A stretch of 32,000 nt of DNA from Wolbachia endosymbiont of Drosophila innubila (GCF_021378375.1 NZ_CP076228.1:1050001-1082000), one strand, 5' to 3'; counted from the first letter of the stretch, positions 1,332 through 32,000 are shown. Numbers and translations are program-made. Notes: a model not told the origin generated them from the sequence alone.

Positions 1332-2074
1332 ACGTAACCGTTCACACTTAATTCTTCAATCTCACTAATAGAAAGGCCAGTAAACTTAACAATAGTGTTG
1401 ACATCAACATTATTAGCCAGCATTGCTTTTGCGACTTCAATTTTCCCTTCAATTTTCCCTTCAATTTTCCCTTCAATTTTCCCTTCAATTTTCCCTTCAA
1501 TTTTCCCTTCAATTTTCCCTTCAATTTTCCCTTCAATTTTCCCTTCAATTTTCCCTTTCTCTATACCTTTTTGTATACCTTTCTCTTCAGCAAGATCAAG
1601 TCTGTATTCAAGAATGGCTTCTTCTTTGCGCAGATCCATTATTCTTTCTTCATAAGTTATTAGATCTTTTTCATTCCAGTGAAACTTATCTAATTCATCA
1701 TATGCTAGCTTTATTATTGGTGATTTTTCCGCAATTTTTCTGAGATCTTCGTCCGTTGTTTCATCTGCATATTTGAAAAAAATAGCCAACGGTCTACTAC
1801 ACTTTCTAGTTGTTCTTCTCTACTCTTAGGAAATTTTGGCAGCTCTATGAAGATAAATTGAAAATCTTTTAAGTCATGCTCATTGGTTTTCATCTCTTAT
1901 GGTATGGCTAGATATATAGTCAAGCTTATCAGGGAATAAGGTACAATTTGAAATCGCGATAAAGAAAATCTTCTTTAAATCAACGTATTTACCAGATTTA
2001 TCAGCTTGTCTTGAGTAAGCCTTAGCAGCATAAAGTTGTGCGCGTTTTTCAAAGCCCTTAGTTTTAGCGACCTG
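1235..2074 (-). pseudogene. Rpn-family (PD-(D/E)XK) recombination-promoting nuclease/putative transposase, 3' exon, frameshifted
   Basis: The minus strand from 2074 reads QVAKTKGFEKRAQLYAAKAYSRQADKSGKYVDLKKIFFIAISNCTLFPDKLDYISSHTIRDE. It then shifts frame to TNEHDLKDFQFIFIELPKFPKSREEQLESVVDRW, and again to FFKYADETTDEDLRKIAEKSPIIKLAYDELDKFHWNEKDLITYEER... These are family-typical motifs. The frame breaks sit at homopolymers 1887-1890 and 1776-1782. The open frame runs 97 nt into the convergent permease gene, so the native stop is uncertain. Confidence 0.75.
1436..1555. repeat. Perfect 12-bp tandem repeat x10 (ttcaattttccc), encoding (GKIE)10 on the minus strand
   Basis: Counted directly: ten identical 12-bp units from 1436 to 1555. 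They lie in the C-terminal region of the Rpn pseudogene and create three repeat-frame phantom ORFs in the track. Confidence 0.95.
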
Positions 2075-4368: not shown

Positions 4369-4620
4369 CATTTCAATCACATACCTAGCCCCACTAGAGT
4401 CCCTGCAAAGAACATCAACTATACTTTGCTTATCAGAGGCAATTTCAGGATCCATTATAGTACTGAGGAATTCCACTTCTTGTATAGTATTTATCTCGGT
4501 AAACCCTAAAATATCATTCAAGAAATGTATGAGAATATTCTTATTTTTTTCAGTGCCAAATATTTTTTTGAAGGTTAAATCCAGCTTAGGGTCGAGAAAC
4601 TTAGATAAAGCCATAGCCAA
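4369..4620 (-). pseudogene. Rpn-family nuclease/putative transposase, 5' exon (84 codons)
   Basis: MAMALSKFLDPKLDLTFKKIFGTEKNKNILIHFLNDILGF..DKQSIVDVLCRDSSGARYVIEM is the conserved N-terminus of the family (D..IVEMQ nuclease core). The reading frame is then broken by intron GTGCG at 4368. Confidence 0.8.
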
Positions 4621-7653: not shown

Positions 7654-8428
7654 GTATCAAAGTAATCATGTAGTTTGCTAAAATGATCAGTATGGACGAT
7701 AAAACAACAGTTGATGTTGTAGCAACACCTACTCCTCGTGCACCTTCTTTGCAATGGTAACCGTAATAGCAGCTTGAGACAGAAATTATGGCGCCAAATG
7801 CAGTTGCTTTTATTAGCCCAGTTATAAAATCATACGTATTAAAGAACTGAGCTGTGTGTTTAATGTATATATTTAAATTGTGGTTAAATTCGAAGACTGC
7901 AGTGATGCATCCTCCAAATATTCCTATTAAATCTGCACATACTGTAAGTATGGGAAATACTATGATTGACGCTAAAATCCTTGGTGCAATTAAATATTTG
8001 AAAGGGTTGATGTTCAAAGTTGTAAGGGCATCTATTTGCTCGGTGATGCGCATCGTACCAATTTCTGCTGCAACTGATGATCCAACCTTTCCTACCATTA
8101 TTAAGCTGATCAAAACTGGTCCTAACTCTTTAATGATAGTGATCGTAACAAGTTTGGGTATTATCTGTTCTTGGTTAATTAATGGGTCACTCAAGCTACT
8201 TTGTAAAACTATCGCCGCTCCTATAAAAACTCCAGTGAGCCCAACAATTGGCAGAGAGAAAAAGCCTATCTCTATAATTTGTCTTGCTATGTTGCTAAAA
8301 TAATATGGTGGCACAAGGCAGTGGTATAGAGATTGAATAAAAAATATGAATGCACTACCAAGCCTTAACAAAAAATTGATAAAGTACCTACCAATTATTC
8401 TAACACTATTTATATCAAAAAAGCTCAC
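7646..8428 (-). CDS. ABC transporter permease, MlaE-like
   Basis: 260-aa multi-pass protein. The pattern IIEIGFFSLPIVGLTGVFIGAAIVLQS..ELGPVLISLIMVGKVGSSVAAEIGTMRITEQIDAL is typical of the MlaE/Ttg2B family. GTG start at 8428. Confidence 0.85.
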   Translation of the reverse strand: MSFFDINSVRIIGRYFINFLLRLGSAFIFFIQSLYHCLVPPYYFSNIARQIIEIGFFSLPIVGLTGVFIGAAIVLQSSLSDPLINQEQIIPKLVTITIIKELGPVLISLIMVGKVGSSVAAEIGTMRITEQIDALTTLNINPFKYLIAPRILASIIVFPILTVCADLIGIFGGCITAVFEFNHNLNIYIKHTAQFFNTYDFITGLIKATAFGAIISVSSCYYGYHCKEGARGVGVATTSTVVLSSILIILANYMITLIHA

Positions 8429-15880: not shown

Positions 15881-16167
15881 GGTGTCATCCCAGTAGCTGA
15901 TACACAACTGTACGAACATTTGTTTGCGAGGGCAGTATGTTAAATGTTATAGCCTGTTTTGCCTCAAACACAAAGGTGTCATCCCAGTGCTTGACACTGG
16001 GATCCAGTAAAATTGATTGTGAACAAGCACACTATGCAACATTTTCAATGAAATTACAAAAAAGCTGGATTCCAGTGTCAAGCACTGGGATGACACCATT
16101 TGCTGTGCAATTTACCTTCGAAAATGAATGTTCGTATGGCTATGTGCGTGACACTGGGATGACACCG
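15881..16167. repeat. Nested family-2 MITE-like elements between nuoI and thrS
   Basis: Outer imperfect terminal inverted repeats are ggtgtcatcccagtagctgatacacaactgtacgaacattt and aatgaatgttcgtatggctatgtgcgtgacactgggatgacacc. An inner 123-bp copy lies at 15975-16097 (ggtgtcatcccagtgcttgacactgggatccag ... ctggattccagtgtcaagcactgggatgacacc). Confidence 0.85.
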
Positions 16168-19931: not shown

Positions 19932-19950
19932 GTTTTTCAAAATTTGTGAG

Positions 19951-20023
19951 TGATCCCGACGCGATTCGAACGCGTGACCCACTGATTAAAAGTCAGTTGC
20001 TCTACCGGCTGAGCTACGGGATC
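19951..20023 (-). tRNA. tRNA-Lys (anticodon UUU)
   Basis: The minus strand reads GATCCCGTAGCTCAGCCGGTAGAGCAACTGACTTTTAATCAGTGGGTCACGCGTTCGAATCGCGTCGGGATCA. It has a 7-bp acceptor stem, anticodon stem ACTGA/TCAGT with loop CUUUUAA, and T-arm ACGCG-TTCGAAT-CGCGT. CCA is not encoded. Confidence 0.9.
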
Positions 20024-20140
20024 ATTTCATTTTTCAGCTATACTAAACATCAATACAGTTTTTATCCGTTTTAATCAAACTAAAATTTTCATGTATGGTT
20101 AAATAAATTATATAATATACTGCGTTAGTGATAATTTAGT
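20024..20140 (-). pseudogene. Probable heavily decayed continuation of a second Rpn-family gene (remnant)
   Basis: The minus strand downstream of the intron-2 insertion point reads D*IITNAVYYIIYLTIHENFSLIKTDKNCIDV*. This is loosely alignable to Rpn DILIHFLNDILGFTEINTIQEVEFLS..DKQSIVDVL (TIHENFS ~ TIQEVEFLS; DKNCIDV ~ DKQSIVDV). The remnant ends at tRNA-Lys. Confidence 0.35.
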
Positions 20141-22057
20141 GTGCGCCAAGAAGTGCGTAAGGAACAGTTGGTGAAAATCCAACACGGGTAAAGCTTAGCC
20201 GGCAACCTGGAACAAACCATTATGCTGCGTAAGGTAACGAGCGTAGTAAAGCTAATGGAATGGACAACATAGGGTGCAACGAAAGTGAAGGTATTGAGTC
20301 CCGTAATTCACGCGTCATGGGGGCTGACACTTTACATTTGGTGGAAGGCAACATGGGTAATAACGCTAAGGCAAGATATTACTCACCTCATCGGGATCGA
20401 AGGCCGCGTCATGTGTTGAGATGGACCTTACGTGAACTTGGGAGATCCTTTGTATTCCTGTAAGGGTACTCTGGAACAAGTCAATAAAGGCGAGGACTGG
20501 AGGAAGATGCAAAGGAAGTCGGACTAATTGATAGTACTCGGAGTGTGGGAAAGCCACATACAAGGGGAAGCGGTTAGCAATATAGTGACTGGTATAGGGA
20601 TTGCTATACCAATACAACAGAGATTAGAGGAGTATGCAAGGAAAACTAAACCAGATAGCAGTAAGGGCTAAGCAAGATAAGCGAGTAAAATTTACATCAT
20701 TAGTTCATTTGATTAATGAAGAGAATCTTGCAGAGTGTTATAAGGAACTAAACGCAACAAGGCTTGTAGTATAGATCGTGTGACAGTGGAAGCTTATGGA
20801 GAAAATCTAGAAGAGAAACTTAAAACACTAGTGGATAGTATGAAGAGAAAACAATATCAACCGCTACCAGTGAAAAGGGTATACATACCCAAAGCCGGGA
20901 GCAAAGAGAAGCGCGGTCTCGGAATACCATCAACGGAAGATAAGTTGGTACAGGTAATGCTAAAGAAGATATTAGAAAATATTTATGAAGCAAACTTTAT
21001 GGACAGCTCGTATGGATTTCGACCAGGAAGAAATTGTCATCAGGCGATAAACGCTCTAGATAAAGCAGTTATGCACAAACCAATTAACTATATTGTAGAA
21101 GTGGATATCAAGAAGTTCTTTGATAATGTTCAACATAAATGGCTAATGAATTGTCTAAGGGAACGAATAGCTGACCCAAATTTATTGTGGTTAATAAAAC
21201 GATTTCTAAAGGCAGGAATAGTCGAAGTTGGATGTTATAAAGCAACCGATCAAGGCACACCACAAGGTGGTATAGTAAGCCCTGTATTAGCTAATATATA
21301 CTTACACTATGTGCTGGACTTATGGTTTGAAAAGAAATTTAAGCCAAAAGCCAGAGGATATTTACAGCTAATAAGGTTTTGCGACGATTTTGTAGTTGGC
21401 TGCGAGAGGGAAGAAGACGCAAAAGAATTTCTAGAATTACTGAAACAAAGACTAAGTAAATTTGGGTTGGAAATAGCTGAAAATAAAACAAAAATAGTAA
21501 AGTTTGGTAAGAAAGAATGGTATCAAGCAGAAAGAGAGAAACGTAGGACGGCTAGCTTCAACTTTCTAGGATTTACACATTATTGTGGAAAAAGTCGTAA
21601 TGGTAAACTTATGATGAAGCAGAAAACTTCAAAAATAAGCCTAGCCAGAAAGATTAAAGAAATCAAAGAATGGTTGAAGATGGTACGAAGTCGTATCTGT
21701 TTCAAAGATTGGTGGCAGAAACTTAAAGCCAAACTAACAGGACACTATAGCTACTTCGGAGTTAGCGGAAATTATCGGTGTTTGATTCAATTCTATCGAC
21801 CGGTAACAAAGTTAGCATTTAAGTGGATAAACCGACGTAGTCAAAAGAAAAGTATGGATTGGGAACAATTTATACACTATTTAAAAAGTAAATCCATTAC
21901 CAAAACCAAAGGTATATGTTTCTTTATACACAGGAGCACTAGTGTGAACGCTGTATTGTGGAGCCGTGTGCGGGAAATCCGCAAGCACGGTTCTTTTGGG
22001 GAGACTATGGTTATGAGACCAAATCGCTGGTTTCAAGGTCATGAGTCTCTACCAGAC
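20141..22057 (+). mobile_element. Group II intron no. 2 (1917 nt), a different lineage from intron 1, with an En-less type IEP
   Basis: 5' GTGCGCC at 20141. Canonical 34-nt domain V at 21961-21994 (GAGCCGUGUGCGGGAAAUCCGCAAGCACGGUUCU). A long domain VI hairpin (GGAGACUAUGGUUAUGAGACC..GGUUUCAAGGUCAUGAGUCUCU) has a bulged A 7 nt before the 3' end ..ACCAGAC at 22057. The 3' flank is the antisense of an Rpn N-terminus. Confidence 0.8.
20634..21947 (+). pseudogene. Group II intron reverse transcriptase/maturase (IEP), two compensating homopolymer frameshifts
   Basis: ATG 20634 gives MQGKLNQIAVRAKQDKRVKFTSLVHLINEENLAECYKEL, then stop. The frame continues as KRNKACSIDRVTVEAYG.. if one A is added to the run 20750-20752. 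The main frame carries RT motifs (RGLGIPSTEDKLVQ, YGFRPGRNCHQA, GTPQGGIVSPVLANIYL, FCDDFVVG) and X domain (LTGHYSYFGV). The C-terminus VNPLPKPKVYVSLYTGALV* (stop 21945-21947, 13 nt before domain V) is in the original frame after the A5 run 21883-21887. Confidence 0.8.
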
Positions 22058-22133
22058 CTTTATTCTTCTCAGTACCAAAGATACGCTTGAACGCGTAATT
22101 GTTTTTTGGATCTAAAAACTTTGATAAAACCAT
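22058..22133 (-). pseudogene. Second Rpn-family gene, N-terminal 25 codons, cut by intron 2 in antisense orientation
   Basis: The minus strand reads ATG GTT TTA TCA AAG TTT TTA GAT CCA AAA AAC AAT TAC GCG TTC AAG CGT ATC TTT GGT ACT GAG AAG AAT AAA G, that is MVLSKFLDPKNNYAFKRIFGTEKNK. The upstream 35-40 nt (..cttaaaaaccattaatattatacactatt) is homologous to the sequence upstream of the first Rpn gene (4621-4660). Confidence 0.75.
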
Positions 22134-22184
22134 AAGAAATCCACTTAAAAACCATTAATATTATACACTATTTTCCGCGATCTT

Positions 22185-23072
22185 TCAACTTAATATTCTC
22201 CCTGTATTTACTTGATATGGCACTGTAACCTTTCCGGTTGATCCACTACGGTTTTTTGCAACATTTATCTCTAAGTCGTTATTAGAATCAGCCTTGTAAT
22301 AATTTTCTCTGTAGAGTAATAACACTAGATCAGCATCTTGTTCAATACTTCCTGATTCGCGTAGGTCTGCTAATTGTGGTCTTTTATTTTGTCTGTCTTC
22401 TACCTTACGGCTTATTTGTGATAATGCTACAATAGGAATATTAAAGTCTTTTGCTATATTTTTTAAAGTTCTACTGATTTCTGTTACTTCAAGAGTTCTA
22501 TTTTCGGTTACTTTCGATCCTCTGAGTAACTGTAAGTAATCAATGTATATGCATTTCATTTTATATTTTCTGCAAATTAATGAGATTTTTTTCTTTAGGA
22601 TATTTAAATCCATATTTCCTGAATTATCGACAAGAATATTTAAAAAAACTATTTGATTTATCCCTTTATGTAAAAGTTCTGTGTTTTGTTTCTTGATAAT
22701 ATTGTTTATTGTCTCATTGACTTCAATACTGATCATTCTATTGATTAACTGATTTGCTGACATTTCAAGTGAGAAAAAGCAGACATATTCTTGATTTTTC
22801 AGTAATTTTGCAGCTTGCAGAGCCATGTGTAGTGCTATTGAGGTCTTGCCAATTGAAGTACGAGCTGCAAGCACTGTTAATTCTCCTTCTTTTAAGCCAC
22901 CAGTTATAGTATCAAGTCTAGGTATTCCTGTTGTTATTCCTTCTATTTCATTGTTGTTTGCAAGTAGTTTATTAATGTAGCTTTTATAAGCTTCAAAATA
23001 ATCAATAATTGGCTTGATGTCTTCATCAACATGTGGCATTTGGTCGATCCTGACCACTCCTTCCTGATCCAT
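22185..23072 (-). CDS. DnaB-like helicase, C-terminal RecA-like domain only
   Basis: 295 aa. GIPRLDTITGGLKEGELTVLAARTSIGKTSIAL (Walker A), IYIDYLQLL (Walker B region), LSQISRKVEDRQNKRPQLADLRESGSIEQDADLVLLLYRENYY (DnaB motifs H3/H4). It lacks the DnaB N-terminal primase-interaction domain. Confidence 0.85.
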   Translation of the reverse strand: MDQEGVVRIDQMPHVDEDIKPIIDYFEAYKSYINKLLANNNEIEGITTGIPRLDTITGGLKEGELTVLAARTSIGKTSIALHMALQAAKLLKNQEYVCFFSLEMSANQLINRMISIEVNETINNIIKKQNTELLHKGINQIVFLNILVDNSGNMDLNILKKKISLICRKYKMKCIYIDYLQLLRGSKVTENRTLEVTEISRTLKNIAKDFNIPIVALSQISRKVEDRQNKRPQLADLRESGSIEQDADLVLLLYRENYYKADSNNDLEINVAKNRSGSTGKVTVPYQVNTGRILS

Positions 23073-23255
23073 TCTCTACCTTAAACCGGAGGCTCCTCAA
23101 ACTCTAAATCTTGTTTTCGTCGCCTCTCCCCTAATTATATATTATATATATAATAATATATAATATATAATTTATAGGGGGGTAACCAAAAAAATGAACT
23201 TTCTTTGAGCTGAGCGAAGCCACCTAAGGTAGAGAATGGATCAGGAAGGAGTGGT
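23053..23255. repeat. 203-bp palindromic region: perfect 31-bp inverted repeat arms around a 141-bp spacer with a 45-bp pure A/T core
   Basis: 23053-23083 (accactccttcctgatccattctctacctta) is the exact reverse complement of 23225-23255. The left arm contains the helicase RBS-like aaggtagaga, the ATG and the first 6 codons. The core 23132-23176 is 100 percent A/T, bracketed by CCCC (23128-31) and GGGGGG (23177-82). The spacer halves are weakly self-complementary. Confidence 0.9.
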
Positions 23256-23335
23256 GTATAAAATTATATATATAAAATCTTTAAGATTTTCTGTATAATT
23301 TACTCATGTAACTTGATAAAAAAGGAAGATAGAAT

Positions 23336-23635
23336 CTACTGAAGAGTATATGTATCGATTATCTTCAAAGCCTCTTCATAAATGGTGTCTCTATGCCCTA
23401 CTGCAACAATAGTTACTGCATGCTTTACAGTATTTACGCTATATATGATGCGATAATCACTAACTCTTAGCCTTCTGTGCCCTTTAAAGCTGTGGTGTAA
23501 TGGTTTACCAAGGTTCAATGGATCGACTGTAAGCCGATCATGTATTGCGTCTACAACTCTTGACCTTATCGTTTTTGGAAGGTCCGGAAGATTTTTCTTA
23601 AGAACGTTCCTTAAGAAGATAATAGTGTATTCCAA
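23336..23635 (-). CDS. Type II toxin, RelE/ParE (RelE/StbE-like) family
   Basis: 99 aa. MEYTIIFLRNVLKKNLPDLPKTIRSRVVDAIHDRLTVDPLNLGKPLHHSFKGHRRLRVSDYRIIYSVNTVKHAVTIVAVGHRDTIYE matches the RelE/StbE pattern (..L..L....GKPL...L.G..RLRVGDYRIIY.I......V.I..VGHR..IY). It overlaps the upstream antitoxin gene by 25 nt. Confidence 0.85.
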   Translation of the reverse strand: MEYTIIFLRNVLKKNLPDLPKTIRSRVVDAIHDRLTVDPLNLGKPLHHSFKGHRRLRVSDYRIIYSVNTVKHAVTIVAVGHRDTIYEEALKIIDTYTLQ

Positions 23636-23847
23636 TCTACATCCTCACTTCTAACCGTCTCTGCACCTTCAACGTCATACTCGTTAGCAACCACAGATAG
23701 TAAAAAGTCTTCCATTTCACGATCTATTGCTTCTTTAAATAGCCTTTCTGCTAATTCTTGAGTTGGCTGCTTAGTGAGCTCAACTAGCTTAGCAAAGTGC
23801 TGCAAAGTTTCTTTACTGAGAGCTATGTTAGTGCTTAAGTTTGCCAT
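23611..23847 (-). CDS. Antitoxin, ribbon-helix-helix type (RelB/ParD-like)
   Basis: MANLSTNIALSKETLQHFAKLVELTKQPTQELAERLFKEAIDRE.. fits a beta-strand/helix/helix RHH layout with an acidic C-terminal tail. It lies directly upstream of and overlapping the RelE-like toxin. The start at ATG 23845-23847 is preferred because the longer track start would include the predicted -10 box. Confidence 0.7.
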   Translation of the reverse strand: MANLSTNIALSKETLQHFAKLVELTKQPTQELAERLFKEAIDREMEDFLLSVVANEYDVEGAETVRSEDVDWNTLLSS

Positions 23848-23877
23848 ATGCTTTACCAAAGTTCTACTACTGTAACA

Positions 23878-23906
23878 ATTATACAACATTTTTCTGAACT
23901 TTTCAA
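23878..23906 (-). promoter_or_regulatory. Candidate sigma70-type promoter of the antitoxin-toxin operon
   Basis: The minus strand reads TTGAAA (23906-23901), a 17-nt spacer, then TATAAT (23883-23878), about 30 nt upstream of the antitoxin ATG. Both hexamers are consensus or near-consensus. In AT-rich DNA such matches also arise by chance. Confidence 0.45.
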
Positions 23907-24011
23907 TAAAGAAAGTTGATGATATGTAAAGAGAATTTTGTGCACCTGTGTTAATAAATTATTAATAATTTGGCATATACTGGAACTGGCTTTTGCTGAT
24001 GTTAGGGAGAA

Positions 24012-26534
24012 ATGACACAAAAGTTAATACTAAGTATAGTATTGCAAGATATTATCAAGAATAAGGAAGGTATGCCAGCTAGTGGGTACTGGATGTATTT
24101 TTATGATAAAAGAAGTCCAACTACTCTTCGTAATGCCTACTACAAGAACCAGGAGGGAAATGTCGTACCGGCACCAAACCCTTTGCAGCTTGATGAAAAC
24201 GGTGCTTTACCTCATAAGTTGTACTACTTTGTCGACGTTGATGATCCTGAAGATCGTTATACCGTAGAACTGAAGTGCAATTACGGTAATGCTGCAGCTC
24301 CTGAACTCATCTTTCATGATCTACCGTACTTTCAAGAACAATCCAAAGCAGATCCAGCTACATCTATATTATCTGATAACTTATTTATTGATGGTCAATT
24401 TAATATTGGTCTACAAATTAATGATAGAGGGCAGGGATCTGGTTATGTTTCACCTGAATTTTCGCAGGTGCCAATTGCTGGACTATCATGGCAGTTTTTA
24501 AGATCTTATGCTGATTCAGTACCGATACAGGATAGAACTGATGTAGACAGGATTTTCATTAAAGACATTACCGAAGCTGAAAGGATCGATGAAGGCAATC
24601 CTCGTTTTTATTTGAACGTTATTTGCGAAAAACCTAGCGAGACAACGCCACCTCTGCAGAAAGCTGTAACATTTAGGAGCTCTAATGTGTTATGGGGTAC
24701 TGATGCCAGAGCTTGGCTGAAGTTCTATGCTTGGAGAGGTGGTGATGATATAATAGTTAATTTACTGGCAATTCGTGATTTTGGTTCAAAATCATCAACA
24801 CCGCCACAAGTTATGTCAATTGATCAATTTTTAATTGATTCTGATACTCCGAAGGTTTATTACACTAGTTTAAGTTTGCTTGGCTTTGTAATACCTGCAG
24901 ATATTGGCGATGATCAAAGTTTGACATTGAAGTTTTTGTTACCACCGAATCGAGCATTTAATTTTAAAGCGACAAATTTTTATTGTGCAGAAGCCTCATT
25001 GCCAATACATGCAGTTGATTTTAAATACCCAACACAAAATTCTGATTTAGCAAAATCTAATTTATTATTTTCTTCATTTCGAGCAAATAAATATAGCATT
25101 GATAACAGTTACAATGAGCTAGTTTTTACAATTGATGGTCTTAAGTTTGTAGATAATATTGGTGAAATAGTTTCCTACCCAAAAGGAGCAAAAGTCGACG
25201 AGGAAAAGATAAATCTGCTCAAGTGCGATGGTCGCACACTTGATTCAACAGGTATTAGTCCGCTCGGCATTGAATACAAAAGGCTATATAACAAGCTAGA
25301 TCATGCTCCAATTACATTTGATATGCTTAAAACCAAAGACATACCAAATTGGTTTAATGCAATATCAAGTGAGTATATTAAGAAGTTTATTGCGGATAAT
25401 AATGTTAAAGTTAAATTCGAGGGAGATGGAGTAGTAAATCCGAAGCCCGAAGGTGATGATATAGGTCATCTATGGCTAGAAACTACATTCTATGCTAATT
25501 CAGATGTTAACTATGATTTTCAATATGTTGCAGCAGCAAATAGCATAGACCTTACTACTTGTTGTCATACGTTTGACATTACCACTAATTACTTAAGTAG
25601 TGGCATTCTAATGACTAATATGAATTTAAGGGAGATAAAATTTGCGGGTTCTGGTTCTGATTTTCCAGGTTATTTTCAAACTATAACTAAATTAAATTCA
25701 ATTTATAATTATACAAATAATGTTGTGCCATACAATAAAGGTATTGATAAAATAACTGAGCAAACTAAAATAAATTACTCTGTTAAAAAGAATTTTTTTT
25801 ATTTGACAGTAAGTCTTAATTATCAACAATTTCCGTATCCTTCCGGTTTATGTGGATTTTTTAATCCAGTTAATTTTAGTAGTAGAGTTTATGATATTGG
25901 TTTTCCTTTAAATATACCATCGGTTAGCGCTACTTTTTTGCAACACAATAATAATACTACTAGTACTTCACAAAGTTACTTTTTGTTTTCACCATGGTTT
26001 GTGTATTCAATGGCTTCAGTACATGGTACAAGTATTAGTTCTAGTGGTGGAGATTACCCTAGTTTCATTCATGGTGATTCTAGTGATTTATTAATGAAGT
26101 CATGGGGTGATTACGTTATTTACAAACAATCAGCAACGGACAAGAGAACACCAGGAAAACCGAATGTTCTGTTTGCTGGTAAAAATTCAGTGATAACCTA
26201 TGCTATACAGCATAAAGCTTTGTTTACGCAAAGATGCTTGTATGTCTTGAAATTTAAAGAAGTGAAAGCAGGAGACTTTATAGGTCTTAAAACATCTCAT
26301 AACACCCAAACTGGTAACAATTTTAACACAGTAATATGGTGGAGTGTTGATGGTGATGGAAAAGCACCAACTAATGTTACCGCCAAAGAATTTAGAGAAG
26401 TCAAAGCAACAAAAGATACGACACCAGAGCAACTCGCAGACATGATTGCCAATGATATTAACAATAAGGGAACAACTATATTCCACATTCCTAATATCAC
26501 TGACGATAAGTGTGACTACTACATAAGGTGCTAA
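24012..26534 (+). CDS. Large (840 aa) hypothetical protein; N-terminus reminiscent of phage tail-fibre/tailspike proteins
   Basis: Long uninterrupted ORF with a strong SD (tAGGGAGaaATG). It is rich in N/S/Y/F/T, suggesting beta-rich structure, and has no TM segment or catalytic motif that I recognise. The N-terminal pattern DIIKNKEGMPASGYWMYFYDKRSPTTLRNAYYKNQEGNVVPAPNPLQLDENGALP resembles the D..G.PL.GG.IY.Y..GT.TP...Y.D......NP..LD..G motif seen at tail-fibre N-termini. That resemblance is pattern memory, not a search result. Confidence 0.8.
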   Translation: MTQKLILSIVLQDIIKNKEGMPASGYWMYFYDKRSPTTLRNAYYKNQEGNVVPAPNPLQLDENGALPHKLYYFVDVDDPEDRYTVELKCNYGNAAAPELIFHDLPYFQEQSKADPATSILSDNLFIDGQFNIGLQINDRGQGSGYVSPEFSQVPIAGLSWQFLRSYADSVPIQDRTDVDRIFIKDITEAERIDEGNPRFYLNVICEKPSETTPPLQKAVTFRSSNVLWGTDARAWLKFYAWRGGDDIIVNLLAIRDFGSKSSTPPQVMSIDQFLIDSDTPKVYYTSLSLLGFVIPADIGDDQSLTLKFLLPPNRAFNFKATNFYCAEASLPIHAVDFKYPTQNSDLAKSNLLFSSFRANKYSIDNSYNELVFTIDGLKFVDNIGEIVSYPKGAKVDEEKINLLKCDGRTLDSTGISPLGIEYKRLYNKLDHAPITFDMLKTKDIPNWFNAISSEYIKKFIADNNVKVKFEGDGVVNPKPEGDDIGHLWLETTFYANSDVNYDFQYVAAANSIDLTTCCHTFDITTNYLSSGILMTNMNLREIKFAGSGSDFPGYFQTITKLNSIYNYTNNVVPYNKGIDKITEQTKINYSVKKNFFYLTVSLNYQQFPYPSGLCGFFNPVNFSSRVYDIGFPLNIPSVSATFLQHNNNTTSTSQSYFLFSPWFVYSMASVHGTSISSSGGDYPSFIHGDSSDLLMKSWGDYVIYKQSATDKRTPGKPNVLFAGKNSVITYAIQHKALFTQRCLYVLKFKEVKAGDFIGLKTSHNTQTGNNFNTVIWWSVDGDGKAPTNVTAKEFREVKATKDTTPEQLADMIANDINNKGTTIFHIPNITDDKCDYYIRC

Positions 26535-26566
26535 CATGAAATAAATTTAAAAATAGGAGAAAAAAC

Positions 26567-26824
26567 ATGATTGAACAAAACAGTAAAATCGATGAAATCG
26601 ATATTGAAATCAGTGAAAAAAATGCTGAAATCGATCATTTTTATGAAGAAACTTTAGAAAAAACGAAAAATATCATCGATGAGGCGATAGCCAAAGGGTA
26701 TACGCTTGGTGATGATGATCGTAAAGTTTTAGAGCTGGTAAAGGCTAATGAGAAATTTGCTGAAAAAGTTCTAAGAGGTTGTTCGGAAACTAGTAAATTC
26801 AAGCATATTCCCTCTTTAACATAA
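26567..26824 (+). CDS. Small acidic, probably coiled-coil protein, C-terminus replaced by IS sequence
   Basis: SD AGGAG lies 7 nt before the ATG and 32 nt after the 840-aa gene. The sequence [45 protein letters not shown].. is heptad-like and acidic. From codon 70 (26774) the ORF reads into the IS inverted repeat, so the last 16 residues are IS-derived. Confidence 0.6.
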
Positions 26825-27258
26825 CCCTACTCATAGCTAGGTATATGAAATTCTCAGTGGATGTTGTGAGTAAATCATACTCCTTCGATAGCCTTCTATT
26901 CCTATTAACCCAAGCAAAAGTCCTTTCTACAACCCATCTTCTTGGCTGTACTTTTAAACCCTTGTTCTCTTGTTGGTAGTAGCTCAGGTGGCGTATCTTT
27001 GTGCACCCAAAATCTACATGGAGGCCTTTTAACAATTTCAATATCTATGTCATATTCTTCCTTTATGTGATTCTTTAAATTTCTTCCTTGGTATCCCATG
27101 TCAGCCCACATTTTTTAACTTTAGTATATTTTGTTCTCATATTGTTTAATGCTATTTTAATACCATCTCTATCATTTTCGTTAGCAGCGCCTACGTAACA
27201 ACCTAGTATAAAACCCTGAGTGTCTGTAATTATATGCCTTTTTCTACCCTTTACTTTT
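26799..27258 (-). pseudogene. IS5-family transposase OrfB (DDE catalytic part) with an extra frameshift
   Basis: [67 protein letters not shown] is followed, in another frame, by [26 protein letters not shown]. The break is at tttAAAAgta (26952-26955 on the plus strand), where three As would give a continuous frame. Confidence 0.75.
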
Positions 27259-27628
27259 TACTTCCATCATAGCTTTGATCCCCCTTTTCTGTAGTCTTTA
27301 CAGATTGACTATCTACTATACAGGCACTCGGCTGCTCATTCTTTCCTATTTTTCTTCTACTATATTTTGTAATTTCATAATTCATTTTCTCAAAAATTCC
27401 CTGCTTCTTCCATTGCCTGAACTGCTCATACACAGTCTTCCATAGCGGAAAATCATTTGGTAAATACCGCCATTGACACCCTGTACGCAATACATAGAAA
27501 ATTGCTTCTAATATTTCTTTTTTGCTATACTTTGGCAGCCTTCCTCCTTTCTTGTATGATACTCTGAAGTGTTTTTCTATTCTTGCCCATTCCCTTTCGC
27601 TTAGATCTGTTGGATACTTTTTTCTCAT
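27251..27628 (-). CDS. IS5-family transposase OrfA (N-terminal DNA-binding part)
   Basis: 125 aa. MRKKYPTDLSEREWARIEKHF..RTGCQWRYLPNDFPLWKTVYEQFRQWKKQGIFEKM is the typical IS5/DUF4096 HTH region. It ends at AGT AAA AAG TAA, where an A5G run could support -1 slippage into the OrfB frame (KVKGRKRHIITD..). Confidence 0.8.
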   Translation of the reverse strand: MRKKYPTDLSEREWARIEKHFRVSYKKGGRLPKYSKKEILEAIFYVLRTGCQWRYLPNDFPLWKTVYEQFRQWKKQGIFEKMNYEITKYSRRKIGKNEQPSACIVDSQSVKTTEKGDQSYDGSKK

Positions 27629-27689
27629 CTTTACCCCGTACTAAAATTTCAGATATTATAGCCTTTTACTTGTTTCCGGACAACCTCTG

Positions 27690-28154
27690 ATTATAAATTT
27701 CAAATTTTTTGATAATTTGAATTACGTAAAAATCTATGCAAAGTGGATACACCAAGCTAATCAGGATACATTTCAGAACGCAGAGATCATAATCCCTATA
27801 CCGTTACATAAAATGCGCTTGTTTAAACGTAAATATAATCAAGCAGCACTGCTTGCAAAAGAATTGAGTAAGTTGTCCAATTTATCCTATACGCCATTTG
27901 CAATAAAACGCCTTCGCCATACTGCGCCTCAAGCTGGTCTTTCACTTAAACAGCGTGAAAAAAATTTAAAGAAGGCTTTTAAAACAAGCAACAAGAAAAT
28001 TATCGAAAATAAAATCGTGATATTAGTTGATGATGTGGTAACAACCGGAGCAACTGTAAGATCTTGCTCTCAGGAAATTTTAAACTCCGGTGCAAAAGAA
28101 GTGAGAGTGCTATCACTTGCAAGAACGGTGAATGATTGTGAGGCTATTACATAA
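27690..28154 (+). pseudogene. comF: ComF-family phosphoribosyltransferase-like protein, 5'-truncated by the IS
   Basis: C-terminal PRT fold: IVILVDDVVTTGATVRSC, PIPLHKMRLFKRKYNQAALLAKEL, QAGLSLKQREKNLKKAF. The frame is open upstream right to the IS end (..LIINFKFFDNLNYVKIYAKWI). The N-terminal zinc-finger part of roughly 80-90 aa expected for ComF is absent. A TTG at 27717 could still allow expression of 145 aa. Confidence 0.7.
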
Positions 28155-28221
28155 AATCTTGGCTTGCTTTTACTATATCCATAAAATTATAATTTATAGT
28201 TGAATAGTTGTTGGGGAGCGT

Positions 28222-29076
28222 ATGAGTATAAAAGAGCAAGAAATTGATGCTATATTCCAAGAAATAGAGCAAGAATCAAAAGAAAGTGACATAATTGAAG
28301 AAATTAAGCAAAAGCTGCTCGCATGTAACCAAGATACATACAATCAGTGGAAAAGACTTAATTTTCACATAGATCATTTATTTGAAATACGGCAAGAGAT
28401 TACCCATGCTTCTAGGTATTATACTACTGCGTTAAACATTGCTGCTCATAAAGGCTTAGTAAAAACAGTAAGACGTCTACTGGAGAAAGGTGCAGAGGTT
28501 AGTACACGCGATGGTGGTGGACACACTGCTCTGCATTGTGCCGCTAGCAGCGGTAATACGGAAATAATAGAATTACTACTGGAGCAAGGAGCACATATTC
28601 ACTCATGTTCTAAACTTGGCTCAACACCGCTGCATTTTGCTGCTACTAATAATCATATAAATGCAGTGAGGTGCCTGTTAAATAAAGGAGCTAGTCCTTT
28701 AGCACTAGATAATAATAATTCCATTCCCAGTATGTTTGCTACAGACAAAGAGGTGATTGCTGTCTTGGAGAAAGCAGAAGAAGAGAAGCATAAGGAAAAT
28801 GCTGCTGCTTTAAAGAAAGCAGAAGAAGAAAAACATAAGAGAGAAATGGAATGTAAGAAAAAAAGGCAAGCAAAAATGATTGCTGTAGGTGGTATTGCAA
28901 CTGCATTGATAGTGGCGGGTATTGGATACATTGTTGAATTACCTATACTAGTAACTATTGGTATATCTGTATCCATTGCATTAGTATCTGTTTGCATTGC
29001 GTACGTAATGTCAAAACCTAACACTAAAATGGAAGGAACAGAGAGCTCTGTACAGGAAATTGGTCAGAGTATATAG
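28222..29076 (+). CDS. Ankyrin-repeat protein with C-terminal transmembrane anchor
   Basis: Three to four ANK repeats (TALNIAAHKGLVKTVRRLLEKGAEV; HTALHCAASSGNTEIIELLLEQGAHI; STPLHFAATNNHINAVRCLLNKGASP). A duplicated KAEEEKHK segment follows, then two hydrophobic helices (MIAVGGIATALIVAGIGYIV; LVTIGISVSIALVSVCIAYVM). Confidence 0.88.
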   Translation: MSIKEQEIDAIFQEIEQESKESDIIEEIKQKLLACNQDTYNQWKRLNFHIDHLFEIRQEITHASRYYTTALNIAAHKGLVKTVRRLLEKGAEVSTRDGGGHTALHCAASSGNTEIIELLLEQGAHIHSCSKLGSTPLHFAATNNHINAVRCLLNKGASPLALDNNNSIPSMFATDKEVIAVLEKAEEEKHKENAAALKKAEEEKHKREMECKKKRQAKMIAVGGIATALIVAGIGYIVELPILVTIGISVSIALVSVCIAYVMSKPNTKMEGTESSVQEIGQSI

Positions 29077-29077
29077 G

Positions 29078-30652
29078 TCAAGATAAAACTTTACTTTTAA
29101 TAACTTCAACATCACTAAACTCAAAGGTTTGATTCCCTATGATTTGAAATTTCTCATGTCCTTTTCCTGCAACCAGCAGAATCATACCCTCGTTATAGGC
29201 AATATCTATGCCTTTTTCTATGGCTTCTTTCCTGTCCCCTATCTCCAGTGCACTAGGACAATATAGCAAAATATCGTGGCGAATTTTTGCAGGATCTTCA
29301 TCACGCGGATTGTCATCTGTGATTATTACTTTGTCTGCATACATTTGTGCTATTTTACCCATTTCTGAACGCTTCTTCCGATCACGATTGCCACCGCATC
29401 CAAAAACTAGGACTATTTTTTTGTTGAAGTGCCATTTTAAAGACAACAGGGCTTGTTTAAGCGCACTTGGAGTGTGTGCGTAATCCACGAATGCAAAAGG
29501 TTTAACTTTTTCCATTCTTCCTGGTGGAGAAACGAGTTTACCTATAGATATTTCTCTGTAATTCAGTCCAGACGAGGTAACTATACCAATTGCACACAAC
29601 AGATTATATGCTTGAAATTGCCCCAAAACTGGAAAAAACATGTTATAAATTTCATCGCCAATTTTAATTGTAAGGTATTGACCATTAGGGGTTGGTGTTT
29701 GCTCTAATAAAGTAATATCAGAACCTGTTTTTCCATAGGTGATAACTTTGTTGCTGCGTTTTTCAGCTATTTTAAGCAATGCATGGTACTCATTTATATC
29801 CGCATTTAAAATTACTGTTTCTCCCTCTGGTAGTACCTCATAAAATAACCTTTTCTTAGCCTCAAAATACTCATCGATACTCTTATGATAGTCCAAATGA
29901 TCTTGCGAGAAATTAGTAAAAGCTGCAGCAGTGAACCTAAGTCCATGAATTCTGTATTGGTCAATTCCATGGCTTGAAGCCTCTAATGCTAATTGTTCTA
30001 CGTTCTTACTATTTATACCACATAATGTGGAATAAAGGTCATCTGCGCCTGGAGTGGTAAGATTATCGCTATTATCTTCTCTGTCATTATTGATGCATGT
30101 TCCAAGTGTTCCAATAGACGCAGCATTATAGCCAGAGTTTTGCCAGATCTGGCGGCAAAATTCTACTACTGAAGTTTTACCATTTGTACCAGTTACAGCA
30201 GCAACATATTTGGGCTGTTTGAATTGATAAAACCTGCTGACTATTTCTCTGTATATTTCTTGAGGGTTTGGGTGGTCAAGCACTGCAAAACTCGGAGTAT
30301 TTGTCATGCAAGTAGCTGACACTGGAATCCAGTTTTTATTATGCAATTGCTTAGTGTGTTCATTTGCAATTAAATTTTCTGGATCCAAGTAGTCAAGCAC
30401 TGGGATGACATCTTTTTTGGTTCCTTGTATGACAACGTCTACACAGTCGTGTGCGTGATACTGGGATTCAGTAGGAAAAATCTGGATACATGCTGGTTTT
30501 CTAGATTCCAGCGTCACGCGCTGGAATGACACCGCAGACACACAAACAAAAAGATAACCTTCCTTTACTCTATTGGGATTACATGTAACGCCCTTGATTT
30601 CAATATCAAAGTTAACATCAATAATGTTATGCAGTAATTCTCTCAGTTTCAT
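29078..30652 (-). CDS. murE: UDP-N-acetylmuramoyl-L-alanyl-D-glutamate-2,6-diaminopimelate ligase with repeat-derived N-terminal insertions
   Basis: 524 aa. VTGTNGKTS (P-loop), LEASSHG, FTNFSQDHLDYH, DYAHTPSAL, GCGGNRD, DNPRDEDP and GKGHE are Mur ligase/MurE motifs. The P-loop is displaced about 45 residues further from the N-terminus than usual. Confidence 0.9.
   Translation of the reverse strand: MKLRELLHNIIDVNFDIEIKGVTCNPNRVKEGYLFVCVSAVSFQRVTLESRKPACIQIFPTESQYHAHDCVDVVIQGTKKDVIPVLDYLDPENLIANEHTKQLHNKNWIPVSATCMTNTPSFAVLDHPNPQEIYREIVSRFYQFKQPKYVAAVTGTNGKTSVVEFCRQIWQNSGYNAASIGTLGTCINNDREDNSDNLTTPGADDLYSTLCGINSKNVEQLALEASSHGIDQYRIHGLRFTAAAFTNFSQDHLDYHKSIDEYFEAKKRLFYEVLPEGETVILNADINEYHALLKIAEKRSNKVITYGKTGSDITLLEQTPTPNGQYLTIKIGDEIYNMFFPVLGQFQAYNLLCAIGIVTSSGLNYREISIGKLVSPPGRMEKVKPFAFVDYAHTPSALKQALLSLKWHFNKKIVLVFGCGGNRDRKKRSEMGKIAQMYADKVIITDDNPRDEDPAKIRHDILLYCPSALEIGDRKEAIEKGIDIAYNEGMILLVAGKGHEKFQIIGNQTFEFSDVEVIKSKVLS
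30303..30533. repeat. Two family-2 palindromic element copies inside the murE coding sequence
   Basis: 30303-30409: gtcatgcaagtagctgacactggaatccag ... ctggatccaagtagtcaagcactgggatgac. About 30451-30533: gtgcgtgatactgggattcag ... ctagattccagcgtcacgcgctggaatgacacc, whose ends match the 16.1-kb and 9.1-kb intergenic copies. These encode murE residues of about 40-117, including [10 protein letters not shown]. Confidence 0.8.
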
Positions 30653-31860
30653 CTGCCAGTTTTAGTGTTCAAACATGGCAACCTTGCTAGTGCAGCATTT
30701 AAATCAGAGATTAAATCTTCAGGATCTTCCAGTCCACAAAATATCCGTATAAAACTTCCACCATAATCTGAATTCATTACAGATCTTGACATAGATCTAC
30801 GATCTATTGGTAATATCAAACTGTCGCATCCTCCCCAAGAAGCACCGATACCAAAAATTTTCATGTGATCAACCATGCAGCTTAGTTCTTCACATGAATA
30901 TTCTCTATCTAGTGCTATACTGAATGTGCCGCTTGCTCCTTTGAAGTAACTTTTCCATAATTCGTGTTGAGGATGGGAGGGAAGTGCTGGATACAAAACT
31001 TTTTTGATTTTTGAATGTTTTTCTAGCCACTTTGCCACTTCCATTGCTGTATTTTGGTACCTTTTCATACGTGTGTACAATGTTCTAAGTCCCCTATGTG
31101 CAAGGTAGCAGTCGTGCGATTGAATGGTTACCCCATAATTTTTATAGCTCTCATAAAGCAATTTAAAAATTTCACCTTCAGCAATAATAGCCCCCATCAC
31201 TAAATCTGAGTGACCGGCTAGATACTTTGTCACCGCATATAGTGCAACATCAACTCCATAATCAAGCGGCTTAAATAACAAAGGAGTGGCCCATGAATTG
31301 TCACAAACGGTCACAATTTTATGTTCCTTAGCAACTTTTACTATATGCTCTATATTCGAAATCTCAAACGTTACAGAACCAGGAGTCTCGATCATTATCA
31401 ATGAAGTATTACTCTGAATTAAATCAGTTATATCCTGTGTTGGATCATAAAAAGTTACTTCTGTTCCTCTTTTTGGTAGCTCATTTTCTGCAAACCTCCT
31501 AAGCCTATAATAACTATTATCTTGAATTAAAACGTGCGAGCCTGCTTTAGCGAAAGTTAGAATAGCAAAAGTAAGTGCAAATAGTCCGGAAGGATAAATA
31601 AGCGCTTGTCCACTCCCTTCAATTTCAGCCAGTGCATTTGAAAGATAATGAACAGTAGGAGTACCAACATTACTGTAGCTATAATCCCTTGCAACACCAT
31701 CGTTGATTACATCGTATATACTTTCTCCATTTGCTGCATTTAAGTAGTCCTTGTAAGTAGGGAATAATATGGTAGAAGAATGATAAACTGGCGGGTTCAT
31801 GGAACCTTTATAGTCATTAAATTTTCTTCCTGCTTTAACTAATATAGACTCTTCCTTCAC
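30649..31860 (-). CDS. metC: Cystathionine beta-lyase (Cys/Met-metabolism PLP enzyme)
   Basis: 403 aa. MNPPVYHSSTILF, YSNVGTPTV, and YAVTKYLAGHSDLVMGA (PLP lysine context). The ATGA overlap with murE suggests co-transcription. Confidence 0.8.
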   Translation of the reverse strand: MKEESILVKAGRKFNDYKGSMNPPVYHSSTILFPTYKDYLNAANGESIYDVINDGVARDYSYSNVGTPTVHYLSNALAEIEGSGQALIYPSGLFALTFAILTFAKAGSHVLIQDNSYYRLRRFAENELPKRGTEVTFYDPTQDITDLIQSNTSLIMIETPGSVTFEISNIEHIVKVAKEHKIVTVCDNSWATPLLFKPLDYGVDVALYAVTKYLAGHSDLVMGAIIAEGEIFKLLYESYKNYGVTIQSHDCYLAHRGLRTLYTRMKRYQNTAMEVAKWLEKHSKIKKVLYPALPSHPQHELWKSYFKGASGTFSIALDREYSCEELSCMVDHMKIFGIGASWGGCDSLILPIDRRSMSRSVMNSDYGGSFIRIFCGLEDPEDLISDLNAALARLPCLNTKTGR

Positions 31861-31867
31861 ATTTTTA

Positions 31868-32000
31868 TTATTTATTTTTTAAATTGTACTCATCTTGCGT
31901 ATACAAGTGAAGAGAAATTGCATGTATTAGCTCTATCTCACCCTTCAATAACTCATAAATCAACTTGTGTCTTTTTAGAACGCTCATTCCAATAAAGCCG
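31868..32000 (-). CDS. BolA-family protein, C-terminal 43 codons (5' end beyond window)
   Basis: The minus strand reads ..FIGMSVLKRHKLIYELLKGEIELIHAISLHLYTQDEYNLKNK*. This matches the BolA C-terminal pattern (..R.VY..L...I...IHALS..TYTP.E). Not in the ORF track because it is short and partial. Confidence 0.6.
   Translation of the reverse strand, partial: GFIGMSVLKRHKLIYELLKGEIELIHAISLHLYTQDEYNLKNK

Follow-up and report, generated by a model that had tools for sequence, protein, structure and literature searches.

What is the longest open reading frame (ORF) in a 32,000-nucleotide stretch of DNA from the Wolbachia endosymbiont of Drosophila innubila (NZ_CP076228.1:1050001-1082000; called the window here, at its full length), and why does it stand intact among decayed genes? 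The ORF, at 24012-26534 on the plus strand, encodes 840 amino acids ending in ...DDKCDYYIRC (the runner-up encodes 633) and is preceded by AGGGAGA, 3 nt upstream of its ATG. The preliminary description of this locus was correct in calling it the longest ORF, intact and equipped with a strong Shine-Dalgarno sequence. The decay around it is also real: an IS5-family insertion sequence (IS) has its ORFs in fragments, a transposase gene is reduced to an N-terminal stub, and a group II intron is present. Compared with the housekeeping proteins of the window, the protein contains more Y (1.7-fold), F, P, T and N and less E and R. A scan for promoters and terminators gave no signal better than that of shuffled sequence. 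The protein had been described as an orphan with a tail-fibre-like N-terminus, possibly an effector or adhesin taken over from a phage. We propose, with a probability of roughly 70%, that the gene encodes the tail fibre (receptor-binding protein) of a phage-plasmid of the pWALBA1 type and has been kept as a shard of an integrated copy, the Dozen island.

The protein is no orphan. Sequence comparison identifies it as the orthologue of "Hypothetical protein 2" (HP2) of pWALBA1, a plasmid of the Wolbachia strain wAlbA, and of the Dozen island. In tblastn it shares 75.1% amino acid identity with the pWALBA1 protein over 100% of the query, and this is the sole plasmid match. Its homologues form 27 clusters of 61-100% identity, all from Wolbachia supergroups A, B or F or from spider assemblies that contain Wolbachia sequence; truncated copies are found in wCle and in the Wolbachia of D. 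citri. At the nucleotide level, window positions 22100-27000 are 87% identical to pWALBA1 over 95% of their length. The block 22058-26779, which holds a helicase, RelE/RelB, HP2 and a fragment of HP3, is collinear with both pWALBA1 and the chromosomal Dozen island. The order common to window and plasmid is DnaB-like helicase, RelE, RelB and then, divergently, HP2 followed by HP3. In the plasmid annotation, HP2 (823 aa) leads a series of 12 closely spaced genes in one orientation, among them those for the putative coat, for a gp10-like and a P22-like portal protein, and for TerL. Scans of pWALBA1 recovered the portal (P22_portal, 2.6e-32) and TerL (phrog_38, 3e-42); the coat assignment is weak (P22_CoatProtein, E 0.013; phrog_283, E 0.018). 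Martinez et al. (2022, PLoS Genet; PMC9560607) describe the same operon with its putative coat, "stabilisation" (P22 gp10-like) protein, P22-like portal and TerL, assign RelB by HHpred (S3 Table), and report for HP2 HHpred "weak similarities with various proteins". Tail genes were not detected on Wolbachia plasmids in that study (PMC9560607), and no later paper was found that gives HP2 a function. HP2 is probably the tail gene that had not been found before on pWALBA1-type plasmids.

The connection to tail fibres is seen in profiles of the HP2 family. An exhaustive profile search, covering 1.84 billion representatives, returned about 40 proteins of 770-840 aa that match positions ~5-430 (E 4e-11 to 1e-3). 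Three larger proteins of 935-1104 aa (P0040, P0048 and P0065) share only the N-terminal 100-170 aa. When the Wolbachia family was aligned by hhalign with a distant set that contained no Wolbachia sequence, the probability was 99.87% (E 9.5e-32, 407 columns, HP2 3-436). In the reverse direction, a hidden Markov model (HMM) of the same distant set matched the HP2 of the window at 4.8e-49 in two domains, residues 3-432 (i-E 1.9e-45) and 753-830 (i-E 4.8e-6), and the second domain is present in every full-length Wolbachia orthologue. The C-termini of the relatives match the PHROG tail collar fibre and tail fibre families (PHROG 523 and 327). The region of the relatives that is missing in HP2 matches the T4 gp12 short-tail-fibre tip (1pdi/1ocy, E 1e-6) as well as genes of cultured phages that are annotated as short tail fibre or tail collar fibre. 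Within the part that HP2 keeps, positions 23-92 of the combined family profile match the N-terminus of a tail spike (9vyg/9vyh, E 2e-4). Another protein, P0036 (3587 aa), was discarded: it is a low-complexity FN3-type repeat protein whose 24 repeats matching positions 49-92 inflate the match.

Structure prediction with a 24-sequence Wolbachia alignment gave an AlphaFold model that was unusable (predicted local distance difference test, pLDDT, 36.9), and a 56-sequence model was used instead. In this model, residues 1-340 have a pLDDT of 70-94, and residues 380-430 and 750-840 are moderate. Together with the profile matches and the ratio of nonsynonymous to synonymous substitution rates (dN/dS), the model divides the gene as follows.

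24012-26534, plus strand: HP2, a diverged phage tail-fibre homologue of 840 aa, by orthology, profile, structure and dN/dS.
24012-24326, plus strand: HP2 aa 1-105, a conserved N-terminal module and proposed virion-attachment domain (pLDDT 69-90, dN/dS 0.04-0.10).
24018-25307, plus strand: HP2 aa 3-432, homologous to the N-terminal half of ~800-aa P22-like phage fibres by hhalign and reverse HMM.
24369-25016, plus strand: HP2 aa ~120-335, a predicted beta-sandwich of about 10 strands, similar to carbohydrate-binding modules (CBM) and CenC (pLDDT ~65-94).
25308-26267, plus strand: HP2 aa 433-752, a distal region specific to the Wolbachia lineage, matched only by Wolbachia sequences.
26268-26501, plus strand: HP2 aa 753-830, a small alpha/beta domain (pLDDT 56-80, dN/dS 0.09-0.21).

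The limits of the beta-sandwich are taken from secondary structure; Foldseek gave no query ranges. In the distant fibres, the small domain at aa 753-830 has its homologue in a domain that is repeated ahead of the collar tip. Among viral models, Foldseek matched uncultured Caudovirales proteins (3e-19), CenC-like carbohydrate-binding phage proteins, and tail fibres of Burkholderia, Ralstonia, Xanthomonas, Agrobacterium and Synechococcus phages (1e-9 to 1e-7). Among PDB entries, it matched CBM4/11/22/30 beta-sandwiches (2e-6 to 1e-4; template modelling score on the target 0.55-0.68), a match at the level of fold on a predicted model, with no Pfam CBM match by sequence. The CBA120 and Klebsiella K2 tailspikes and the P22 tail complex were also found. 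The earlier suggestion of a tail-fibre-like N-terminus and a beta-rich fibre architecture is thus borne out, both by the homology of residues 3-432 to P22-like phage fibres and by the structure matches. Of the follow-ups that had been recommended, profile-profile comparison gives fibre homology (E 9.5e-32), and Foldseek matches the AlphaFold model to tail fibres of phages and to beta-sandwiches of the CBM type, as well as to the P22 head-binding domain.

The substitution pattern also resembles that of a receptor-binding protein. All five diverged HP2 orthologues compared are intact, and their pairwise dN/dS lies at 0.15-0.31. The family is, from these sequences, under purifying selection, measured between lineages that include plasmid copies. 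With 27 clusters and such ratios, HP2 across the family does not show the strain-specific, neutral pattern that the preliminary description had named among the outcomes fatal to its idea. By region, dN/dS is 0.04 in the first 60 codons and 0.6-1.1 at residues ~540-707. Measured against pWALBA1, HP2 has an omega of 0.31 and the helicase one of 0.04; within HP2, aa 211-315 and 526-735 stand out as hot patches. Constraint is strongest in the N-terminal ~100 aa, which are also all that HP2 shares with the fibres of 935-1104 aa. Phage receptor-binding proteins classically combine a conserved N-terminus with a distal part that is swapped or evolves fast.

The genomic context of the relatives places such genes among virion genes. 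The ~800-aa fibre relatives close P22-like structural modules composed of P22_portal, scaffold- and coat-sized genes, Phage_stabilise, large genes and the fibre. Single-sequence phmmer searches with pWALBA1 proteins against the Flavobacterium-type phage modules found nothing, and the link exists only at the profile/Pfam level. The three relatives that share only the N-terminus sit on contigs SRR35668515 (L003, 20.5 kb), SRR13494285 (L005, 19.2 kb) and ERR11641687 (L006, 13.7 kb), with a GC content of 30-42%. All three contigs encode homologues of the pWALBA1 TerL (1e-44 to 1e-57), portal, coat, g169 and g610. A DnaB-family helicase is present on L003 and L005, on L003 as a 975-aa primase-helicase fusion; no ParA/ParG or RelBE genes were seen on the three contigs. 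One of these contigs reads portal, g169, TerL, HP2-like gene, small ORF and coat. In these relatives the HP2-like gene lies between TerL and the coat gene, and on pWALBA1 the plasmid-maintenance cassette lies between TerL and the fibre gene. The position of the HP2-like gene among structural genes of the related contigs means that the fibre gene is integral to the element family. HP2 belongs to a virion structural module on pWALBA1, in intact islands and in the related elements, and has been split off from it at the window site. As an observation on the group as a whole, the three contigs and pWALBA1 form one coherent element family; the Wolbachia plasmids may have free or lytic relatives in these contigs.

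If HP2 is a tail fibre, its N-terminal module would dock the fibre onto the tail hub, much as the head-binding domain of the P22 tailspike does. The CBM-like beta-sandwich and the lineage-specific distal region would bind a structure on the Wolbachia surface, and the collar tip would have been lost or replaced.

Several results weigh against this reading. Pfam, PHROGs and PDB gave no match when searched by sequence with the 840-aa protein, as the statement that it carries no nameable domain had anticipated. The Wolbachia-only profile found nothing in PDB. The N-terminal 115-aa profile of the pWALBA1-like group found chance-level PDB matches (XPB, SEH-associated protein) and no PHROG. Because these Wolbachia-only and pWALBA1-group profiles lack PDB matches, the link of HP2 to characterised tail proteins is transitive or structural. 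HP2 aligns to the fibre HMM up to about position 687 of 785, leaving positions ~690-785 with no counterpart; the collar tip, which identifies the relatives as tail fibres, is exactly the part absent from HP2. Residues 430-745, in the distal 40%, are unmodelled (pLDDT below 50). For the Foldseek match to the P22 tailspike head-binding domain (2vnl, 9jg6_P; E ~1e-3 over 103-109 columns), the matching query residues were not reported; we infer that it would belong to residues 1-105. Virus particles have never been shown for Wolbachia plasmids (PMC9560607), and a 2026 preprint finds pWALBA1 to be strictly vertically transmitted within wAlbA. A search of 50,697 phage records by tblastn likewise found no match in cultured phages.

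A narrower assignment, HP2 as a tail collar fibre protein with a T4 gp12-like tip, was rejected: the collar/HxH domain is absent and there is no PHROG or Pfam match. By eye, and not used as evidence, LLKCDGRTLDSTGISPLGIEYKRLY (CDG...Y motif, aa 402-426; window 25215-25289) resembles the first half of a tail collar, and 'IFHIPNI...YYIRC' (aa 823-840; window 26478-26531) resembles the last strand of a collar domain. To the eye, the collar domain also seems split by inserted domains in the distant fibres. If so, its HxH core would be deleted in Wolbachia, an idea that was given no weight either.

The position of HP2 in the window can be read from the boundaries of the shard and from its other genes, as follows.

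20134-22057, plus strand: group II intron at the left boundary of the island shard, with a reverse transcriptase (RT) ORF at 20780-22090 (RVT_1).
22058-22133, minus strand: N-terminal stub (aa 1-28) of an Rpn/PD-(D/E)XK transposase, found by tblastn with the pWALBA1 Rpn.
22185-23072, minus strand: DnaB-like helicase (Pfam DnaB_C 1.2e-79; 97% amino acid identity to the pWALBA1 gene).
23336-23635, minus strand: RelE/ParE toxin of 99 aa (Pfam ParE_toxin 9e-10; 99% identical to the pWALBA1 RelE).
23611-23889, minus strand: RelB-like antitoxin, 98.7% identical to the pWALBA1 RelB, for which pWALBA1 annotates a 78-aa version (23614-23847).
26567-26824, plus strand: HP3', a truncated HP3 N-terminus (aa 1-71 at 26567-26779) of 85 aa that reads on into the IS.
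26774-27688, minus strand: IS5-family element at the right boundary, truncating HP3, with inverted repeats and DDE_Tnp_1_2 and DUF4096 ORFs.

On the left, Rfam places RF02005 at 20174-20406 and RF00029 at 21959-22057 in the intron, and homology to intact islands begins at 22058, directly after the intron end at 22057. On the right, the two inverted repeats of the IS5 element, of 24 nt each, lie at 26774-26797 and 27665-27688. It had seemed unexpected that a fibre-like gene should sit outside any tail module and beside a replication/addiction cassette. This adjacency is normal plasmid gene order: HP2 lies beside the cassette because that is the plasmid's own arrangement, and the structural genes have been separated from it by IS and intron recombination. 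Along the 4.7 kb from 22100 to 26779, the synonymous divergence (dS) between window and pWALBA1 is 0.04 for RelBE, 0.26 for the helicase and 0.49 for HP2. Since dS differs more than ten-fold along the block, the block is a recombinant mosaic; lineages have evidently swapped the toxin-antitoxin cassette in recent times, separately from the fibre gene. Genes are reported to flow pervasively between plasmids and chromosomes (PMC9560607).

The small ORF downstream of HP2 had been taken for a partner gene, perhaps a chaperone or fibre assembly factor. Its description as an acidic, co-oriented ORF of 85 aa that starts 32 nt after HP2 holds (26567-26824, plus strand; pI 4.8), and AGGAG stands upstream. 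It is not a complete gene: in BLASTP its product is 82% identical to aa 1-71 of the 179-aa pWALBA1 HP3, after which foreign IS sequence follows, and homology of the region to uninterrupted islands stops at 26779. Comparison with these sequences identifies it as an IS5-truncated copy of HP3. The role of tail-fibre assembly chaperone was rejected for this truncated gene, which has no chaperone family match in Pfam or PHROGs. Full-length HP3 is also acidic (pI 4.8, 37 acidic residues), and on pWALBA1 it occupies 7751-8290 and overlaps the coat start at 8290. The position directly upstream of a coat gene is the usual place of a scaffolding gene. Gene position therefore suggests that full-length HP3 is a candidate scaffolding protein. 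Full-length HP3 has no Pfam or PHROGs match, the 85-aa fragment reaches only phrog_12880 at E 0.3, and HP3 does not resemble the small ORFs that occupy the corresponding place in the related ~20-kb elements.

Why the copy in the window is intact can be answered from its closest relatives. A phage-like plasmid would have integrated into the Wolbachia chromosome and later been broken up by mobile elements. Degraded chromosomal copies of the plasmid, including the Dozen island, and plasmid-like islands flanked by transposable elements and with truncated genes are already described (PMC9560607). In the wInn draft genome, the HP2 DNA is identical to that of the window, window positions 20139-32000 are 99.7% identical to the contig, and the junction is the same (HP2, HP3', IS, ankyrin protein, murE, metC). 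Other strains have contiguous islands in which HP3 is intact, or carries the same IS insertion and is followed by the coat gene and the rest. On another contig, wInn has a second shard with an IS5 copy, HP3 aa 69-179, coat, HP4 aa 2-78 and a group II intron copy. The IS5 copies that bound the two shards are 99.2% identical and the group II intron copies 99.84%. With such near-identical copies at both shards, the island was shattered by recombination between repeated mobile elements. In this scenario, IS5 would have cut HP3, and IS and intron recombination would then have moved the coat gene elsewhere. Two structural genes, HP3 and HP4, are truncated in wInn. In the part of the wInn genome that was seen, neither shard has a gene for a gp10-like protein, portal or TerL next to it, and such genes could survive at other sites.

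Intactness amid decay had been read as a hint of function. The chromosomal HP2 copies, including those of intact Dozen islands, show 0-2 differences in 2.5 kb, and intactness therefore reflects youth and needs no selection. All near-identical chromosomal copies together carry three unique substitutions, all nonsynonymous and too few for an informative dN/dS. The >=90% cluster contains HP2 fragments 193-615 aa long, some of them possibly contig-end artefacts, and wBiau carries HP2 pieces of 345 and 193 aa on one 1.18-Mb contig. Fragments in such close relatives mean that decay does happen. The window copy of HP2 is most likely a young non-functional relic. A scan of genome contigs gave three loci only, with Wolbachia collapsed to a few species representatives. 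In two otherwise contiguous Dozen islands (L022 and L023, 17000-18523), a further group II intron leaves only 359 aa of the P22-like portal, and even "intact" islands are therefore unlikely to make particles.

The other explanations differ in what HP2 would do and for whom. One is that HP2 is a virion protein that does not bind receptors, such as a head fibre, a decoration or a tail accessory protein, and that the true receptor-binding protein is another (for example, the 610-aa protein) or comes from phage WO. HP2 does lie between TerL and the scaffold-position and coat genes and not at the module end, it lacks the collar tip that marks tail fibres, and WO tail hijacking has been raised as a possibility, the same authors considering it unlikely (PMC9560607). 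We regard this explanation as unlikely: in P22-like modules the ~800-aa homologues, with their gp12-like tip, fill the slot of the tailspike or fibre, the combination of a conserved N-terminus and swapped distal parts is classical for receptor-binding proteins, and the structure matches are tail fibres and tailspikes, including the P22 head-binding domain.

Exaptation, in which Wolbachia keeps the phage-derived fibre as a virion-independent adhesin or effector acting on the host cell or on other bacteria, appears quite improbable. HP2 is intact with a strong Shine-Dalgarno sequence although HP3 and the virion module are broken in the same genome, the wInn draft has the same shard with intact HP2, and the predicted CBM-like beta-sandwich could bind glycans. 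Differences of 0-2 nt between chromosomal copies leave no need for selection, and the three unique substitutions are all nonsynonymous. HP2 is truncated in related strains (193-615-aa fragments), in wCle and in the Wolbachia of D. citri, and the purifying selection was measured across lineages that include plasmid copies. Family scans against Pfam and PHROGs turned up no signal peptide, secretion motif or eukaryote-like domain. The exapted effector or adhesin of the preliminary description thus found no support, closely related chromosomal copies being often truncated. That the chromosomal HP2 still serves a mobile element, as a recombination reservoir or as a fibre supplied in trans to a plasmid or to other shards, is very improbable. 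The mosaic of dS values against pWALBA1 (RelBE 0.04, helicase 0.26, HP2 0.49), the documented gene flow between plasmids and chromosomes (PMC9560607) and the survival of the coat gene elsewhere in wInn would fit it. Against it, the data examined showed no plasmid for this wInn-like strain, wInn keeps only parts of HP3 and HP4, and neither shard adjoins a gene for a gp10-like protein, portal or TerL.

The tail-fibre reading matters beyond this locus. The descriptions of Wolbachia plasmids date only from 2019-2022. Genes for a terminase, a portal and a coat-like protein are present on these plasmids, and without a tail gene it had been unclear whether they can form infectious particles. HP2 is a concrete candidate for the missing host-recognition component, and through its link to fibres the plasmids join a broader family of small P22-like elements. 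Whether particles carry plasmids from one Wolbachia strain to another becomes a question that experiments can approach, which is relevant to the long-standing difficulty of genetically manipulating Wolbachia. A further step, which we hold only tentatively, is that HP2 is the functional receptor-binding fibre of an undescribed ~20-kb podovirus-like phage-plasmid lineage with a P22-type portal and a gp10-type hub, and that pWALBA1-like plasmids are a second Wolbachia virus family besides WO. If that were true, the fast-evolving distal region of the fibre would decide which Wolbachia strains the phage-plasmids enter, and there would be a particle-based route for the transfer of plasmids and cif genes and a possible vehicle for transforming Wolbachia. 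The window itself holds a recently stranded fragment of a known integrated plasmid, which is neither an orphan nor a demonstrated effector.

Other features of the window lie around the shard or far from it. A tRNA-Lys(TTT) gene (19950-20023, minus strand) stands about 110 nt from the 5' end of the left-boundary intron, between nuoF and the mobile-element cluster, and may mark a preferred site of insertion or recombination. Past the IS5 inverted repeat by 29 nt, an ORF of 145 aa with a TTG start (27717-28154, plus strand) encodes a ComF-like phosphoribosyltransferase domain and looks 5'-truncated by an IS-associated rearrangement. An ankyrin-repeat protein of 284 aa (28222-29076, plus strand) adjoins the IS, as at the same position in wInn (L020), and its hydrophobic C-terminal tail resembles transmembrane segments. 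A second Rpn/PD-(D/E)XK transposase gene (1570-4620, minus strand) is split into aa 1-82 (4614-4369) and aa 76-245 (2095-1589) by a group II intron of another class (Rfam RF02012 at 4131-4279; RT ORF 2750-3739). Intact Dozen islands have an Rpn::intron left end to which this region is 97.9% identical, and the region may be a displaced island piece or a paralogous copy. Rfam WsnRNA46 (Wolbachia small RNA 46) matches 15958-16113 on both strands (162 bits on the plus, 71 bits on the minus strand), which suggests a palindromic repeat element rather than a single-copy small RNA gene. A second match lies at 30289-30424 (minus strand), inside a murE-like ORF.

HP2 can finally be set beside several known systems. 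The P22/Sf6 tailspike (gp9) would work in a similar way: a small, conserved beta domain at the N-terminus would dock on the hub of gp4, gp10 and portal, and a variable part behind it would bind the receptor. HP2 and gp9 have no detectable sequence similarity, HP2 has no predicted beta-helix, and its body differs from that of gp9 in consisting of the CBM-like beta-sandwich and then the unmodelled region. Fibres of uncultured P22-like podoviruses or prophages, such as that on a Flavobacterium sp. contig, are of similar length and homologous over HP2 3-432 and 753-830, and their genomes carry a P22-like portal and a gp10-like protein (Phage_stabilise), as pWALBA1 does. The identity is only ~20%, the collar/HxH tip (HMM ~690-785) is theirs alone, and where they carry two tandem small domains HP2 has its ~320-aa lineage-specific region. 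In addition, the HP2 gene starts the structural operon, whereas the P22-like fibre gene ends it. The fibres of the ~14-20-kb elements (935-1104 aa) have the N-terminal module of HP2 (~100-170 aa) and the divergent arrangement with a DnaB-family helicase, but their distal parts are wholly different and the helicase, on L003, is fused to a primase. The tail-fibre module of phage WO is comparable as a phage receptor-binding apparatus in Wolbachia genomes, and no WO protein appeared in any HP2 search. Closest of all is the HP2 of pWALBA1 and the Dozen island, a full-length orthologue with the same gene order, flanking transposable elements and truncated genes, the window protein departing from those of intact Dozen islands by 0-2 aa; at the window site there is only a 4.7-kb shard, with the coat gene elsewhere. 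HP2 has no assigned function in the earlier description (PMC9560607), whereas here it is linked to phage tail fibres.

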